In this document: positions 37,701 to 43,700 of the stretch, in pieces
How positions within the stretch are numbered: position 1 is the stretch's first letter
How the letters are laid out: every line of letters starts with the position of its first letter
Origin: Planctomycetota bacterium
Lineage (GTDB): Bacteria > Planctomycetota > UBA11346
Assembly: GCA_038231435.1 (NCBI GenBank)
Contig: JBBRLJ010000001.1
Span: 192,001 to 256,000 of the forward strand
Reading direction: 5' to 3'
DNA length: 64,000 nucleotides
Program-made: the position numbers

Positions 37701-40700
37701 GCTCACCGCGTTCTCGTTCGATGCTGGGCTCGGGCGCTTGCATGCGTTCCAGACCATCTCCACCAGGCCGGCGGGAGCGGTCGGCGAGAACTGGGCCTCG
37801 CAGCTCGCGGTGTCAGCGGACGGCCGTTTCCTCTACGCCTCCAATCGCGGCGACGATGCGCTCGCCATCGTCGCGATCGATGCCGGCAGCGGTGGGCTCA
37901 TCCCGCGCGGGCATCGCCCAAGCGCCGGGAAGTGCCCACGCCACTTCGCCCTCGACCCGAGCGGACGCTGGCTGCTGATCGCCAACCAACACTCCGACAC
38001 CGTGGTGGTCCTACCCGTCGATCGGCACACAGGGGCGCTCGGCGATGTGGCTGCCACCGCGACCATTCCCAAGCCGACGTGCATTTGCCCGGTGCCCCAG
38101 GGGGACTGAGATCGGCGGGTTCTGCGGATCGTTCAGAGGTTCGTTCCACGGGTGCTCTGCGTATTCCCGTTGTACAGATCATCTGCCGTTTACGGCAGCT
38201 CTGCCCCGCGGGTACGGTGAACAGCGCACCGTCTTGTGCCGTAGCGCGCGCTCACATACTTTGGCCATGGCTCGACCCCCGAAGGCACGCACTCCGCTCA
38301 AGCAAGCGGCCTTGGAACTGTTCGTCGACCAGGGCGTGCACGCCACCGGCATCCGCGACATCGCCAAGCACGCGGGCTGCTCCGAAGCCGCGCTCTACCG
38401 CCATTGGAAGAACAAGGACGACCTGGTGGTGAGCCTGTTCACCGAGCACCTCGGCGAGGTGCGGGCCATCCTCGACGCCGCCATCCAGTCCGAGACCACT
38501 CTCGACGGCAAGGTCCACGCCGCGAGCAAGGCCTGCTACAAGCTCTATGACGAGCAGCCGCAGGTGTTCCGCTTCGTGCTGCTGGTCCAGCACGAGCTCT
38601 CGCGTACCTTGCCGACGGACCTGCGCATGCCGCAGGACGTGGTCGCGGACATGGCCAAGGAGGGCATCAAGCGCGGCGAGGCCAAGGGCGATCCGATGCT
38701 CATGGCCGCCGCGGTGATCGGCATCTTCCTCGAGACCGCGGTGTTCGTGCTCTACGGTCGCCTCGAAGGACCGCTATCGAAGTATGCAGGACCTGTGGCC
38801 GAATCCGCTCTGCGCGTATTGAGGAAGTGAGTGGAGTGTGGTGTGTAGTGGATGGAAAAACCACACGCCACACACCACCCACCAAACACTCGTTCAGCCC
38901 CGCGCGCTGACCGATCGAATGACCTGCTCCGCAGCCGCGGTACGTTCGTCCGCTGCCATCACCACCAGTCCGGCGAGGCGATCCTTCCAGGCGGCGAGGA
39001 AGCGCAGCACGCCCTTCACGTCCTCGCTGGTATCGGTACGCAGCCGCTGCTTGAGCCGCTCGGGCACCGACAGCGCGGGCAGTTCGTTGTCGAGCTCGTC
39101 AGCGGTGGCCGCGTCGGGAAGCAGCAGCACCTCGGCGAACAGCGGCGTCTTCGTCGCGGTGGCAGCCATGAAGGCGCGGAACCGCGCCGGCTCGTAGATG
39201 GGCTGGATGGTGAGGAAATCCGCTCCGGCGGCGACGTACTCGTCGATGCGGCCGGCATCGCCTTCGCGCACGCGCACGCCCACGGCGAAAGCGGTGGCCT
39301 CGTCGAGGCGGCTGCCGGCCAGGTCGCGGCCACCGTTGAGCCGCTTGAGCGCACGCACCAGGCTCGCCGGATCCGCCCCCGGCGACTGCGTGTCCGCGCG
39401 CGAAGTGCCGGAGAACACCCCAGAATCGATCAGCGCCAGGCGCAAGCCGAGCAGGTGCGAGGTGAGCGCCGCGTCTTGCGCCTGCGCGAGCGTGGTGTCG
39501 CCGGCGATGAACTCGAGCACGCCCGGCCGGCCGCTGGCGTCCTGCAGGTGGCGCAGCAGCGCTCCCAGACGCGCGCCGCGCGGCGAGCCGGGCCAGCCAC
39601 CGAGCAGGCCCACCGCATCTGCCCCGGCCGCGGCGAGCCGCGAGGCCGCCGCGACGGCCTCGCCCGGGGCGAGCCTGCCGGGCAGCATGGCGATGACCGG
39701 AAAGCCGCCACGAGCCACCTTGGCCAGGAGCGGTTGGATCGCCAGCGGAGCCGGTACCACGGCCACGATGGCCGGAGCGGGCGCCGCTTTGGCCACCGGT
39801 TTTCCAGCGAAGGCCCCCGAGACCGCGCGGATGTGTTCCGGGCCCACGCCGCAGCAACCACCCACCACGGCGACTCCGGAGGCGAGGTATTCGCGCACGC
39901 GCTCGACCAGGTAGTCGGGTCGCAGGTGGTAGCGCAGCCGCCCGGCCTCGGTGGTCGGGAAGCCGGCGTTCGGACGGGCGACCACGGGTAGGCGCGTCAG
40001 GCGCGCGAGCTCGGCGACCACCGGTGCGAGCGCGCGCGGGCCGCCCGCGCAGTTCACCCCCACCGCCGCTGCACCGCCTGATTCCATCGCCCGCGCGAAT
40101 TCGCCGAGCTCGATCGGATCGGCGCGTTCGATGCTGCGACAGGCGAACACCGGCAGGCGCGAGACGCGCCGCACCGCAGCGAGGGCCGCGGCGGCCTCGG
40201 TGGTCGAGGGCATGGTCTCGAGCGCGAAGCCGTCGGCGTTGGCGTCGGCCATCGCGAGCGCGACCTCGGCGAAGGCCTCTTCCGCCTCGGCGGCGGTGAT
40301 GTCCGCCCCGACCACGCGGCCGAGAGGGCCGATCGAGCCGAGCACGAACACCGCGCGACCTCCGGCCGCGAGGGCGGCCTGGCGCGCGAGCTGGATGCCG
40401 GCTGAAGCGAGGCGCACGGCCTCCTCGCGACCGCCGGGTAGGCGCCAGCGATTGGCGCCGAAGGTGTTGGCGGTGATCGCCTCGGCGCCGGCGTCCACGT
40501 AGGCGCGGTGCACGGCGAGCACCAGATCCGGATGATCGACGTTCGCGCGCGCGATCGCGCTGGCGGGGATGCCGCGCGCGATCAGCTCGCTGCCGGTGGC
40601 GCCATCGAGCACCAGCACGCCCTGCGCCAGCCGGCGCTCGAGCGGCGAGCGCAACGGCTGCGATCCCGGCACCGCGACCAGGTGCCGCGACAGCAGCATG

Positions 40701-43700
40701 GCGATGCGTTCGGCCGCGCCGCGCGGCAGACCCTCGGCCGCCGGGCCGATGACGCGCGCGATCGAGGCGGCGTCGAAGGCGGGCATCGACGAGCTCAGGC
40801 GCTCGGCGGCGGCGACGGTGGATTCGAGCAGGATGGTGGTGGTGAGCGAACCCACGCCGCCGGGCACCGGGGTGATCGCGAGCGCCACCGCCGACACGTC
40901 CGCGGCGACGTCGCCTACGGTCTCGGACTTGCCATCCTTACCGGCGATGCGGTTGATGCCGACATCGATGACCACCGCTCCTGGCTTGATGTGCTCGGCG
41001 GTGATCAGGCCGGCCTTGCCGACCGCGACCACCACCAGATCGGCGGCGCGGGTGTGCGCCTTCAGATCGCGGGTGTGGATATGGCAGGTGGTGACCGTGG
41101 CACCGGCGCCCAGCAACAGCTGGGCGATCGGCTTGCCGACGATCACCGAGGCGCCGACGACGCAGGCCTCGATGCCCGCGAGATCGGCGCGGCCGAGCCC
41201 TTCCTGCGCCAGCGTGAACGCCGACAGAGCGGTACACGGCGCGAGCGCCTGACGCCCGGCGAGCAGCAATCCGAGGTTGGCGGGGTTGACCCCTTCGACG
41301 TCCTTGTCCGGGCTGAGCTGGGCCTGCGCCTGGAGGTCGCTCAGCTCCTTGGGCAACGGGCTCTGCAGGATGATGCCGTGCACCAATGGATCCAGATTCA
41401 GGGCCTCGATCGCCTCGCCGAGATCCTCCTGGGTCGCACCAGCGGGCAGCTCGACGATGCGGTGGCGGATGCCCACGGCTGCGCACGCGGTCGCCTGATT
41501 GCGCAGGTACACCGACCAGCCATGGTCGGCGCGCGCGGTGATCGCCACCAGGCACGGCGCGATCGAGCGCGCCGCCAGCGCCTGGACCTTCTCGGCCAGC
41601 CGCGCGCGCCGCGCGTCGGACACCGCCTTGCCGTCGATGATGCGAGCGTTCGCCACGGCACGAATCTACGATCCGGCGGCGTGGAACAACCTCGACCACC
41701 GGAGCCCGGGAGCGGAGCGGACCGCCACGAAGCCACGAGAACGTCCGACGGGCGTGGTGTTCCGATCCCTCCCACTCCGACGGATTCCCCTGGCCCGGCT
41801 GGCTGCCTTTTCCAGACTCGCGCGATGCTCGCGTGGCACCTCGGCATCCGCTATCTGCGCACGCGTCGCGCGGCTTGGCTCGCCCTGGCGGCGATCACTC
41901 TGACCGTGGCTGCTCCAGTGACGGTCATCGGGGTGATGCAGGGCTTCCTCGACGTGCTGCGCCGACAGGCGCGCGCCAGCGAGAGCGACGTCACGGTGTA
42001 TCAATCGTGGGGTGGCCCAGGGATCGCCGATTCGCGCGAGCGACGCCAGCAGCTGCTCGACGTCGATGGCGTCGCCGCGGTCGGCCCGTTCGTGCAGCTG
42101 TACGCGCTGATGACCCCCACGTTCATCGGCGACCAGTCGTCGTACGGCCTGCCTTGCCAGATCGACGCCATCGACTGGCGCGCCGATGAGATCATCGGCC
42201 GCCTGCGGCCAGGGCTCCTGCATCCCCAGCCAGTCGAGGATCTCAGCGCCCCGCCGCTCAAGCCCAGCGAGCGCGGCAGCGGATTCCTGACTCCTGCCTG
42301 GCGTGATGAGCTCAGCCTGATCGGCTTGCGCCTGGCGCCCGCGCTCGGACTCGGGCCCCTGCCTCCGCCTCCGCGCCAGCTGCCCCCTCCGGGAGTGGTC
42401 GCGGGACGCGAGCTGCTCTACGGCAGCGGGCTCGGCGTGGGTGAACGGGTGGAGCTGGTCGGTTCGGCGCACATCGCCAAGACTGCCGAGATCAGCGACA
42501 CCATCGGCACCGGCATCCTCGAGATCGACAAGCTGTCGTTGATCGTGCCGTTGGGGTTGGGGCAGGAGCTCGCCGACTTCACGCCCACCAAGGGCCGGCC
42601 ATTGCGCGTCGATGGCTACCGACTGCAGGCCAGGCCCGATGTCGATCTCGACAAACTCGCGAGCCGGGTCCATGAAATCAGCGGCCGGCGCGCCGACACC
42701 TGGCTGCACCGGCGCGCGAACATGGTGAAGAGCCTGGAGTACCAGCGCAACATCATGGCCTTCGTCATGCTCGCCATCCAGGCGATCGCGGTGTTCGTGG
42801 TCTATGCGGTCTTCAGCACGCTGGTCGCCGAGAAGCGCCACGACATCGGCGTGCTGCTGGGTATCGGCGCGCGTCGCCGCGACATCGCCTACGCATTCCT
42901 CATCGCCGGCATCGCCGCCTGTGGATTCGGTGGCGCGCTCGGCTGGGGCATCGGCTGGGGCCTGCTCGCCTTCCTGAACTTCCTCAGCAAGCACTACGGC
43001 CTGCTGCTCTTCCCGCAGGACGTGTTCTACAGCCCAGACACGCCGATCAGCTGGGATGCTCGCATCCCCTTGTTCTTCATCGCCGCGATGGGCATCATCG
43101 GCCTGGCCGCCGCCGCGCTGCCGGCATGGCGGGCCTCGCGCATCGCGCCAGTGGACATCCTGCGGGAGGGCGGCTGATGCGCCTCGAGGTCGCTGGCGTG
43201 CGCAAGGCCTATCCGGGTCTCGAGGTCCTGCGCGGACTCGACCTGCGGGTCGATGCCGGCGAGGTGGTCGCGATCCGCGGCACCTCGGGCACCGGCAAGA
43301 GCACGCTGCTGCACTGCCTCGGCCTGCTCGACACCCCGGACAGCGGCACCATCTCGCTCGATGGCTCGGAGCTCAGCGCGCTATCGCCGTCGCGTCGCGC
43401 CGAGATGCGCGCGCGCCGCATCGGCTTCGTCTTCCAGGCCTTCAACCTGCTGCCCGAATTCACCGTGCTCGAGAACGTGCTGATGACCGCGCGCACTGCC
43501 GGCCTGCCGCTGATCGCGGCGCGCGGCCACGCGCTCGCGCTGCTCGACCGGGTCGGCCTCGGCGGACGCGGCTGGAGCGCCATCTCGACGCTCTCGGGTG
43601 GCGAGCGCCAGCGCGTGGCGTTGTGCCGCGCGCTGCTGCCGCGCCCTGCCCTGCTCCTCGCCGACGAACCCACTGGCAACCTCGACCCCGCCACCGCCGC

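Follow-up and report, generated by a model that had tools for sequence, protein, structure and literature searches.

Known one-carbon enzymes and the tripartite protein

In Methylobacterium (MtdA and Fch) and some acetogens, the two FolD activities reside on different proteins, a monofunctional dehydrogenase and a cyclohydrolase; this is the closest known precedent for such a separation. In bifunctional FolD, according to passages in two studies, the general acid/base of the cyclohydrolase reaction is a lysine kept in position by Gln100, the pterin is bound by an aspartate, and all of them are termed 'strictly conserved in FolD orthologues' (PMC3338484, PMC3368264); a third reports that the K56E mutant retains dehydrogenase kinetics, with a Km about 6-fold higher (PMC9173628). 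YitJ has been termed an AdoMet-using homocysteine methyltransferase in one account (PMC6302742). The catalytic glutamate of MTHFR is common to flavin-independent Mfr and to Mer, with glutamine mutants retaining at most 0.4% activity, and flavin-independent MTHFRs exist (PMC11094777).

The window analysed here, a stretch of 64,000 nucleotides in a Planctomycetota assembly of 5.2 Mb (87.6% complete), encodes a 920-aa protein that carries FolD, homocysteine methyltransferase (HMT) and MTHFR-fold domains in one frame (Table 1). An earlier note on this DNA had reported such a three-domain fusion, and its Pfam matches were reproduced. PF02882 is matched only once in the assembly, making the fusion the genome's only FolD-family gene, again as the note had stated. 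Beyond FolD, residues 338-916 span positions 3-602 of the 611 in the model for YitJ-type HMT/MTHFR proteins (NF006396; B. subtilis YitJ), with the same domain order, and constitute a whole YitJ-type module. In contrast to YitJ, the MTHFR half lacks the equivalents of Glu28, Asp120, His88 and Lys172, a FolD part is added N-terminally, and the score against NF006396 is 294.7, short of the cut-off (453). Among solved structures, the HMT domain matches best the homocysteine-binding domain of T. maritima MetH (1q7m; 137.8 bits), with the Zn-binding Cys triad aligned; unlike in MetH, the HMT is followed by neither a pterin-binding (DHPS-like) nor a cobalamin or activation domain, and the genome has a full MetH-type gene at another locus. 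A dehydrogenase lacking the cyclohydrolase lysine, combined with an intact HMT and a dead reductase-like barrel, would be an undescribed arrangement.

Table 1. Features of the fusion gene, in positions of the 64,000-nucleotide window
Feature	Position	Strand	Basis
Whole fusion gene	38894..41656	(-)	920 codons and TGA stop; GTG start
FolD catalytic domain, Q/E type (res 7-121)	41294..41638	(-)	Pfam and alignment to solved FolDs
FolD NAD(P)-binding domain (res 125-286)	40799..41284	(-)	Pfam; best conserved part, mean pairwise identity 0.70
Linker FolD-HMT (res 287-337)	40646..40798	(-)	Sequence conservation and structure model
HMT domain, MetH-Hcy/YitJ type (res 348-614)	39815..40615	(-)	Pfam; alignment to T. 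maritima MetH 1q7m
MTHFR-fold barrel (domain 3) without the catalytic residues (res 649-916)	38909..39712	(-)	Sequence alignment and structure comparison
Best conserved stretch of domain 3 (res 843-865, VLLLPDAATADELDNELPALSVP)	39062..39130	(-)	Alignment

The fusion is read as a single polypeptide

We used the fusion protein as the query against 48 genomes of one family of uncultured Planctomycetota. The linker between FolD and HMT is conserved among orthologues (mean pairwise identity 0.44, with 0.58-0.70 for the FolD halves, 0.60 for the HMT and 0.54 for domain 3), and the frame is open in low-GC orthologues too (GC3 ~0.35), so that we read the gene as encoding one polypeptide and not as a mis-joined call. 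That the ORF was mis-assembled, or that internal starts give rise to two or three proteins, is the least probable of the alternatives considered, and a very improbable one. The linker, predicted to form two helices, is modelled at low confidence (pLDDT 42-56), which could fit separate proteins; against this, none of the 30 near full-length orthologues, all taken from independently assembled genomes, shows a break in the frame, and no stop, promoter-like or terminator-like site was found within the gene.

The FolD domain belongs to a Gln/Glu subtype

Compared with bifunctional FolD (E. coli FolD, human MTHFD1 DC301), the fusion carries 630 further residues, and its FolD part matches both Pfam domains over their full length (THF_DHG_CYH, 1.4e-28; THF_DHG_CYH_C, 4.2e-52). 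In alignments with the solved FolDs 3l07, 4a5o and 3p2o (204-218 bits), Tyr50, Gln98 and the Rossmann NAD(P) site are retained, whereas the YxxxK lysine is replaced by Gln54 (41495-41497), the pterin-binding aspartate of KDVDG by Glu121 (41294-41296; the motif reads KDVEG), and the serine three residues ahead of the YxxxK tyrosine by Trp47 (41516-41518). All 28 fused orthologues that have an N-terminus share the Trp47/Gln54/Glu121 state (Gln54 in 28/28, Glu121 in 30/30). These residues, together with a separate FchA-like gene in the genome, do not support the earlier description of a complete dehydrogenase/cyclohydrolase.

The two substitutions covary strictly. In a first set of genomes, Gln occurred with Glu in 12/12 and Lys with Asp in 9/9, and the newly typed copies repeated the pattern (50/50 and 19/19); a quick tree separates the Q/E from the Lys/Asp types on a branch with an SH-aLRT of 100. 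The Q/E form is the majority FolD of the phylum, found in 62 of 97 typed genomes; another 25 of the 97 are Lys/Asp. We infer that the FolD domain of the fusion acts as a dehydrogenase rather than as the canonical bifunctional enzyme, with the cyclohydrolase supplied in trans; the loss of the latter activity is deduced from one residue class and from phyletic patterns. Gln could still support slow hydrolysis of methenyl-THF, a compound that hydrolyses slowly even without enzyme.

A candidate cyclohydrolase is encoded separately

The genome has one FTCD_C gene (Pfam, 91.6 bits), located on a different contig from the fusion. Its 199-aa product is a stand-alone FTCD_C protein, like methenyl-THF cyclohydrolase of M. 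extorquens (7vg4; 1.6e-6) and 1o5h of T. maritima (1.2e-11), but falls far below the cut-off of the NCBIfam FchA equivalog (34 vs 275 bits). The FTCD_C family takes in cyclodeaminases as well as cyclohydrolases. Neither a formiminotransferase nor a formate-THF ligase was found in this genome.

Across the family, FTCD_C is present in 35 of the 40 genomes with a Q/E FolD or the fusion and was not found in the other five, which carry the fusion and are 68-89% complete; it is absent from all three genomes with a Lys/Asp FolD. In the phylum sample, it accompanies 61/62 Q/E but 13/25 Lys/Asp genomes (Fisher p 3e-7, no real probability given that the genomes are related), and 12 of the 13 genomes without it are of the Lys/Asp type. 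The association is inflated, because FTCD_C is widespread across the phylum (88/101 genomes) and relatedness makes the genomes non-independent. In 20/62 Q/E genomes, including the one studied here, FTCD_C is present and FTCD_N is not, a combination seen in 0/25 Lys/Asp genomes. In four genomes from four different families, all Q/E, folD is preceded on its own strand by FTCD_C, at a distance of 100-210 nt (G039, G066, G101, G124).

The YitJ-derived module combines an HMT with a putative pseudo-reductase

The HMT domain (Pfam S-methyl_trans, 3.9e-59) retains 44 of 55 YitJ-conserved columns and, in the alignment to MetH, the Zn ligands Cys536 (40049-40051) and Cys601-Cys602 (39851-39856), and is thus predicted to be an intact Zn-dependent homocysteine methyltransferase of the YitJ/MetH-Hcy type, in agreement with the YitJ-like assignment of the earlier note. 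One orthologue (L028, from G054) has lost all three cysteines, and HMT catalysis is therefore not kept universally.

The same note had seen in the C-terminal tail only a weak likeness to MTHFR. Its degeneracy stands: the Pfam MTHFR match (residues 800-878) reaches 2.4e-4 and 21 bits, below the cut-off of 24, and domain 3 keeps 20 of 40 YitJ-conserved columns. The restriction to a weak likeness does not, given the coverage of the whole YitJ model and a confident barrel fold. Residues ~640-920 are predicted to fold as an MTHFR barrel (AF2 pLDDT 93.7), every Foldseek match listed to rank 41 is an MTHFR, and VIA Z scores to MTHFRs are 21.3-22.9. Tied with these is 3IJD (Cthe_2304, an uncharacterised C. 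thermocellum protein; Z 21.9, rmsd 2.9 A over 250 residues), which the sequence search did not find (11% identity) and which, crystallised with two 5-methyl-THF molecules according to its entry title, provides a precedent for methyl-folate in a protein of the MTHFR fold; our literature search found no paper on it. By sequence, domain 3 is closest, outside the clade, to the C-terminal half of YitJ-type proteins of 600-640 aa.

On alignments at 11-18% identity, E. coli Glu28 maps to Ala656, His88 to Glu715, Asp120 to Val747 and Lys172 to Tyr807, whereas Gln183 is retained as Gln818 (Gln in 21/24 orthologues). The Glu28 position is Ala/Gly/Thr and the Asp120 position Val/Gly/Ile in 24/24 orthologues, while 77 YitJ-type relatives keep the equivalents in 96% and 91%, respectively. 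The best conserved stretch of the domain corresponds to the strand 7/helix segment that bears the folate-stacking Phe223 in E. coli MetF (here Leu855). Domain 3 thus seems to be a pseudo-reductase: the barrel remains, but the catalytic acid and the Asp for pterin binding are gone. It appears to be maintained by selection and most likely partners the HMT barrel, either by binding folate or structurally. An invariant Asp744, three residues ahead of the Asp120 position, might take over pterin binding.

Possible function and alternative readings

We favor, with a probability of roughly 0.55, a model in which the lineage's housekeeping 5,10-methylene-THF dehydrogenase resides on the tripartite protein, with a cyclohydrolase in trans and a YitJ-derived module attached. 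Observed are the domain layout, the residue states, the degree of conservation and the phyletic patterns; each of the activities, and their coupling, is a prediction. The FolD domain would oxidise methylene-THF to methenyl-THF with NAD(P)+ without efficiently hydrolysing the product, a step left to the separate ~200-aa FchA-like protein. By homology, the HMT domain would bind homocysteine and methylate it with a methyl group from S-methylmethionine, AdoMet or another activated donor. Our leading guess, and the weakest step, is a sensing or regulatory role of the module, which may respond to homocysteine and/or methyl-folate status and tune or localise the dehydrogenase; on this question the gene neighbourhoods of the fusion were uninformative, and the full-length model (pTM 0.61) is of low confidence in the tether. 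Such tuning would act where methylene-THF is shared between two competing demands, purine/formyl supply and methyl supply through MetF/MetH, a key branch point in one-carbon metabolism.

It is less likely, though the strongest of the alternatives, that the FolD part is an ordinary bifunctional enzyme, with Gln54 or water replacing the lysine, and that the YitJ-like part is a salvage methyltransferase joined for co-expression only, FTCD_C serving elsewhere, for example as a formimino-THF cyclodeaminase. The full-length Pfam domains, the retained Gln98, Tyr50 and NAD(P) site, 42-45% identity to Lys/Asp-type FolDs of sister genomes, the name bifunctional FolD borne by such proteins in public records, the description of YitJ cited above and the frequency of FTCD_C in the phylum, often with FTCD_N, all fit this reading. 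It accounts poorly for the strict covariation, the FTCD_C-free genomes being nearly all Lys/Asp, the Q/E genomes with FTCD_C and no formiminotransferase, and the four exclusively Q/E adjacencies.

Two readings that give domain 3 a catalytic part are improbable to the same degree. It could be an active, non-canonical methylene-THF reductase in an assembly line leading from methenyl-/methylene-THF to methyl-THF and towards homocysteine, since the domain order follows consecutive pathway steps, the fold is confident, Gln818 is kept and flavin-independent MTHFRs are known; however, the glutamate shared by MTHFR, Mfr and Mer is replaced throughout, the Asp120, His88 and Lys172 positions are altered too, half of the YitJ-conserved columns are gone, and a canonical MetF, encoded on contig C25 of this genome (280 bits) and in 39/48 family genomes (E <=1e-60), makes a second reductase unnecessary. 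Alternatively, the former MTHFR barrel might present 5-methyl-THF to the Zn-homocysteine site for direct transfer, creating a cobalamin-independent methionine synthase, a two-barrel solution analogous but unrelated to MetE. The intact Zn site, a dead reductase barrel pre-adapted to bind its former product, 3IJD as the neighbour of closest rmsd, the strong conservation of the folate-contact segment and the failure to find MetE in this genome would suit such an enzyme. Phyletic complementarity is lacking, however: MetE occurs in 13/48 family genomes, including 11 that carry the fusion, and is missing from most of the fusion-free genomes too. A MetH-type match is present in nearly all family genomes, here in a 1320-aa frame on contig C37 (the separate MetF and MetH of the earlier note were both recovered), and one orthologue lacks the Zn cysteines. 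We know of no S-methyl_trans family member that uses methyl-THF directly.

Distribution of the fusion

Near full-length matches at 49-66% identity were found in 30 of the 48 family genomes, and in four others the matches cross a domain boundary before being ended by contig ends, so that a fusion spanning at least two domains is present in 34/48 genomes and 16/18 genera. The remaining genomes have fragments only (three), an unfused FolD part (three, of one genus), a different stand-alone FolD (three) or neither (five). The fusion thus extends across genera, as had been proposed, but its clade is one family of uncultured Planctomycetota, and no spread across a class was observed. All 31 loci found through the clade-specific domain are from Planctomycetota MAGs, a few of them labelled Kuenenia.

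A single frame joins FolD to a YitJ-type module

The gene for the three-domain fusion (Table below) yielded the Pfam domains reported in the earlier note: THF_DHG_CYH at residues 7-121 (1.4e-28), THF_DHG_CYH_C at residues 125-286 (4.2e-52), S-methyl_trans at residues 348-614 (3.9e-59), and, below the cut-off of 24 bits, MTHFR at residues 800-878 (2.4e-4, 21 bits). PF02882 was matched by the fusion alone in the 5.2-Mb assembly, in line with its description as the sole FolD gene, a count that does not fully exclude a second copy because the assembly is 87.6% complete. A separate canonical MetF (contig C25, 280 bits) and a MetH-type match (a 1320-aa frame on contig C37) were also where that description led us to expect them, elsewhere in the genome. 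In the same genome, we found no MetE, no formate-THF ligase, and no formiminotransferase (PF07837, 0 matches).

Features of the window at and near the fusion gene
Feature	Window position	Strand or orientation	Remarks
Fusion gene	38894-41656	minus	single open frame, 920 codons, GTG start, TGA stop
FtsX/ABC pair	start 168 nt upstream of fusion gene	divergent	
TetR gene	end 63 nt downstream of fusion gene	convergent	
tRNA gene	43978-44050	+	Rfam RF00005, 72.4 bits; directly downstream of ABC ATPase gene

The fusion gene stands alone between neighbors of other kinds, namely, halogenase-like, lactonase, TetR, FtsX, and ABC ATPase genes, and no one-carbon or methionine genes recurred among 69 flanking ORFs at 17 orthologous loci (locus L082 left out). 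An Rfam scan of window positions 36000-45000 (E up to 1) detected no riboswitch or leader RNA adjoining the gene, yielding just the one tRNA and two sub-threshold matches; between 38600 and 42000, there were no promoter-like sites and a single terminator-like site, at chance level. At about 44950-45060, a four-residue unit (RPCA or LDRV) recurs five or six times in tandem in each of two overlapping frames, which indicates a 12-bp tandem repeat in the DNA.

The fusion is conserved across the family

Searching 48 genomes of the same family of uncultured Planctomycetota with the fusion protein produced near full-length matches in 30 (49-66% identity) and, in 4 more, matches that cross a domain boundary and are cut by contig ends; retention across genera, as previously proposed, thus extends to 34 of the 48 genomes and 16 of the 18 genera. 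The remaining genomes contained fragments alone (3), an unfused FolD of the same kind (3, all from one genus), a different stand-alone FolD (3), or neither the fusion nor any FolD that we could see (5, including two at 61% and 68% completeness). Between FolD and the homocysteine S-methyltransferase (HMT) domain, the linker is conserved in sequence among orthologs, and the frame is open in low-GC orthologs too; therefore, we consider the product to be one polypeptide. When the third domain, which is specific to the clade, was used as a back-translated query, the 31 loci identified all belonged to Planctomycetota MAGs, a few of them labeled Kuenenia. Public names of the fusion proteins are ‘hypothetical protein’ or plain FolD.

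The domains all belong to known families, and their combination is undescribed in the non-subscription literature searched. A 2024 FolD-family survey reports that no fusion was detected to genes except FTHFS (PMC11064299); the present protein would be a FolD fusion of a kind not in that survey, fixed across a whole family. Outside the family, FolD catalytic domains lie in open frames of 550-976 aa at G113:C287:4285-4629, G087:C1:75556-75903, G074:C3:143716-144054, G112:C1, and G127:C1 (genome and contig), which could be more FolD fusions or merely long frames in GC-rich DNA.

The FolD domain lacks the catalytic lysine

The N-terminal part had been described as a complete FolD dehydrogenase/cyclohydrolase. 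Both Pfam domains are indeed full, with complete model coverage (THF_DHG_CYH, 99.9 bits vs a cut-off of 32.8; THF_DHG_CYH_C, 176.1 vs 27), but two catalytic-site residues differ. In HMMER alignments to the solved FolDs 3l07, 4a5o, and 3p2o, the lysine of the YxxxK motif (human Lys56, E. coli Lys54) corresponds to Gln54, with Tyr50 kept, and the second aspartate of KDVDG (human Asp125) corresponds to Glu121, a conservative change that turns the motif into KDVEG. Gln was found in all 28 fused orthologs having the N-terminus, and Glu in 30 of 30 orthologs. The equivalent of Gln100 is kept as the invariant Gln98, and Trp47 occupies the position of the Ser three residues before the Tyr. Among the 25 NCBIfam families listed, none of the 24 FolD models reached its own cut-off (best NF010785, 271 bits vs 396).

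In the original mutagenesis work, Lys56 mutants reportedly lost cyclohydrolase activity and kept that of the dehydrogenase. In three published accounts, the lysine is the general acid/base of the cyclohydrolase reaction, positioned by the adjacent Gln, the Asp binds the pterin, and all three are termed ‘strictly conserved in FolD orthologues’ (PMC3338484, PMC3368264, PMC6443876). A discussion of published kinetics has K56E chiefly raising the Km of the dehydrogenase reaction (PMC9173628). We conclude with moderate confidence, from residues and gene content, that the FolD domain of the fusion probably acts as a dehydrogenase, with a separate FchA-like protein as its candidate cyclohydrolase partner.

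A candidate cyclohydrolase accompanies Gln-type FolDs

The only FTCD_C gene in the genome carrying the fusion encodes this FchA-like protein, a stand-alone product of 199 aa (91.6 bits vs 24.5, Pfam), downstream of an ORF that, named from sequence, we take to be murA-like. Its relatives include 1o5h from T. maritima (1.2e-11) and 7vg4, the methenyl-THF cyclohydrolase of M. extorquens (1.6e-6), and it scores far under the FchA equivalog cut-off of NCBIfam NF045657 (34.1 bits vs 275). The two genes are on different contigs in this genome; in another family genome (G008:C242), the FchA-like gene (495-986, plus strand) lies 4.6 kb from the fusion gene (5621-8416, minus strand). A complex predicted between the FolD domain and the FchA-like protein scored 0.00, which, in a run without controls, speaks neither for nor against binding.

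Within the family, FTCD_C is present in 35 of 40 genomes that carry a FolD of the Gln/Glu type or part of the fusion, the five lacking it being 68-89% complete, and is missing from all three with a stand-alone Lys/Asp FolD (G003, G017, G061). We then typed FolD directly from DNA in a phylum sample of 101 genomes at least 85% complete. Of these, 97 could be typed, 3 had no FolD match, and G144 was left out. The types were Gln/Glu in 62 genomes, Lys/Asp only in 25, and other non-Lys forms in 9, and one genome carried both Lys/Asp and Ile/Glu copies; among newly typed copies, all 50 with Gln had Glu and all 19 with Lys had Asp. FTCD_C occurred in 61/62 Gln/Glu and 9/9 other non-Lys genomes vs 13/25 Lys/Asp genomes, such that 12 of the 13 genomes without it are of the Lys/Asp type. 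FTCD_C in the absence of any formiminotransferase domain genome-wide was seen in 20/62 Gln/Glu vs 0/25 Lys/Asp genomes. In four genomes from four different families, each Gln/Glu, FTCD_C precedes folD on its strand at a distance of 100-210 nt (G039, G066, G101, G124). The association between FolD type and FTCD_C runs in the same direction at the family and phylum levels, with a Fisher p of 3e-7 that overstates the case because related genomes are not independent.

A quick tree separated Lys/Asp and Gln/Glu FolDs with 100 SH-aLRT support and placed the fused FolDs in one group (85), sister to unfused forms from genus g11 (95). Among the 120 best matches to the FolD domain in a large protein collection, 104 are of the Gln type, the named proteins being annotated as bifunctional FolD; no cultured host for Q/E-type FolDs was found among members of the protein clusters examined, and no description of a Gln-type FolD in the non-subscription literature searched. 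By sequence, most Planctomycetota FolDs lack a catalytic lysine termed strictly conserved, yet those with names are annotated as bifunctional. If Q/E FolDs are dehydrogenase-only enzymes with FchA-like partners, the cyclohydrolase step would be mis-assigned in the pathway reconstructions of many genomes.

Neither Lys nor Gln stands at the YxxxK position in G067, G074, G084, G098, G104, G121, G122, G141, and G142, nor in second FolD copies of G068 and G134; these have Ala, Leu, Ile, Thr, or a gap there, and Glu or Asp at KDVDG. Three genomes (G036, G092, G109; 85-98% complete) gave no match to the FolD catalytic domain, though all of them carry FTCD_C; they may rely on a methylene-THF dehydrogenase of a different kind.

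The HMT domain is intact by sequence

The likeness to YitJ that had been proposed holds along the whole C-terminal module, where NF006396 (bifunctional HMT/MTHFR, YitJ-type) matches end to end (positions 3-602 of 611 on residues 338-916, E 1e-87), but the score of 294.7 bits is below the equivalog cut-off of 453. The HMT domain itself is complete, as previously reported (PF02574, 201.3 bits vs 22, model positions 1-281 of 283). Among solved structures, it matches best to 1q7m, the homocysteine domain of MetH from T. maritima (137.8 bits); Cys536, Cys601, and Cys602 align with the Zn-ligand NC and GGCC motifs there. The three cysteines are present in 21 of 22 orthologs, and 44 of the 55 columns conserved across 70 YitJ-type relatives are retained; by sequence, the HMT half is intact. 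One orthologous locus, L028 (G054:C171), has lost all three cysteines (Asn-Cys replaced by Thr and a gap, Cys-Cys by Gly-Arg) and retains the full three-domain protein, and thus HMT catalysis may be dispensable in at least one lineage.

The third domain is a predicted MTHFR-fold barrel that has lost the catalytic acid

The C-terminal region had been described as a tail with a weak likeness to MTHFR. The Pfam match is indeed sub-threshold, and stays so for the third domain alone (PF02219, 23.4 bits), but the likeness extends beyond the patch at 800-878 to a whole barrel. Pfam MTHFR is matched by 17 of 24 orthologous sequences of this domain (E up to 0.1, best 5.3e-9), and the profile of the domain reaches human MTHFR at 6.8e-4; in an exhaustive profile search, the fusion clade is followed, after a gap, by YitJ-type proteins of 600-640 aa and then by stand-alone MTHFRs of about 290 aa. 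The AF2 model (pLDDT 93.7) retrieved only MTHFRs among the Foldseek matches shown to rank 41 (TM 0.63-0.68), and the ESM Atlas gave exclusively MTHFR-family clusters for the domain (0.87-0.90). VIA Z scores were 22.9 (3apt), 21.9 (3IJD), 21.5 (1zp3), and 21.3 (6fnu), with Mer (17.8) and flavin-independent Mfr (17.5) next in this all-against-representatives search. The domain is, by its predicted structure, a genuine MTHFR-fold barrel. A likeness of residues 645-755 to the part of Thermus MetH beyond its homocysteine domain was judged to be low-complexity or generic barrel similarity and discounted, because the profile, fold, and NCBIfam evidence all favor MTHFR.

Residues of the third domain at functional positions of MTHFR (alignment of 124 sequences, E. 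coli MetF numbering bridged via the genome's own MetF)
E. coli MetF	Fusion	Fusion clade (24 sequences)	YitJ-type relatives (77 sequences)
Glu28 (position A, common to Mfr and Mer)	Ala656	Ala 19, Gly 4, Thr 1	Glu 96%
His88	Glu715	Glu 19, Asp 4, Ala 1	His 94%
Asp120	Val747	Val 22, Gly 1, Ile 1	Asp 91%
Lys172	Tyr807	Tyr 14, Leu 3, Trp 2, Met 2, others 3	Lys 97%
Gln183 (pterin-binding)	Gln818	Gln 21/24	Gln 91%
Phe223	Leu855	Leu 20, Ile 4	Leu 83%

Whereas the MTHFR halves of YitJ-type proteins keep the Glu, His, Gly-Asp, and Lys (91-97% of 77), these are replaced at the aligned columns in all 24 fusion-clade sequences. His88 and Lys172 are FAD contacts in MTHFR. FAD-dependent MTHFR, flavin-independent Mfr, and F420-dependent Mer all have the Glu, and mutants with Gln in its place have at most 0.4% activity left; Asp120 binds N3 and the amino group of the pterin, and Gln183 binds N8 and N1 (PMC11094777). 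An invariant Asp744 lies three residues upstream of Val747, and the register at Asp120 is uncertain at 11-18% identity.

Only half of the YitJ-conserved columns are left in this domain (20/40). Its conservation within the clade nearly equals that of the enzymatic domains (mean pairwise identity 0.54; FolD halves, 0.58 and 0.70; HMT, 0.60), and its most conserved stretch, residues 843-865, maps onto the folate-contact segment. A canonical MetF is encoded in 39 of the 48 family genomes (E 1e-60 or better). We read the third domain as a putative pseudo-reductase retained for binding or structure. As such, it would show clearly how an enzyme domain can be put to new use once its catalytic acid is gone, and could open a way into the logic, so far unexplained, of YitJ-type fusions generally.

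In nine family genomes, there is a further MTHFR-like gene of divergent sequence (65-110 bits; frame length about 435-500 aa; G019:C158, G016:C11:1207809-1208651, G020:C1, G014:C463, G011:C25, G017:C55:29556-30389, G059, G061, G063), which was not found in the genome of the window.

Possible roles of the fusion

Methylene-THF is the branch point between nucleotide and formyl supply and methyl supply. The leading idea for the role of the fusion is sensing, whereby the YitJ-derived module would inform the dehydrogenase at this branch point of homocysteine and/or methyl-folate status; bacteria are not known to control the branch via a sensor that is part of FolD. More simply, the module could be an independent salvage methyltransferase joined to FolD for co-expression. 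Gene context and complex prediction gave no pointer to the role, nor did the full-length AF2 model, which shows each domain with confidence but has a pTM of 0.61 and a tether with pLDDT below 56.

It is also conceivable, but we consider it very improbable, that the HMT barrel works with the dead MTHFR barrel as a methionine synthase that needs no cobalamin and is unrelated to MetE. The pocket of the former reductase would hold 5-methyl-THF as the direct methyl donor, and, as this synthase would be tethered to the sole methylene-THF dehydrogenase, one polypeptide would be placed at both exits of the methylene-THF node. The third domain is structurally as close to 3IJD, an MTHFR fold crystallized with 5-methyl-THF, as to true MTHFRs, but the fusion shows no complementarity with MetE, 11 of the 13 family genomes (of 48) that encode MetE also carrying the fusion. 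Sensing by the YitJ-derived module is the reading we favor.

Nothing on 3IJD or on the uncharacterized MTHFR-fold protein in that entry, Cthe_2304, was found in the non-subscription literature searched. The entry title gives two bound 5-methyl-THF molecules, and the protein may stand for a class that binds methyl-folate without catalysis.
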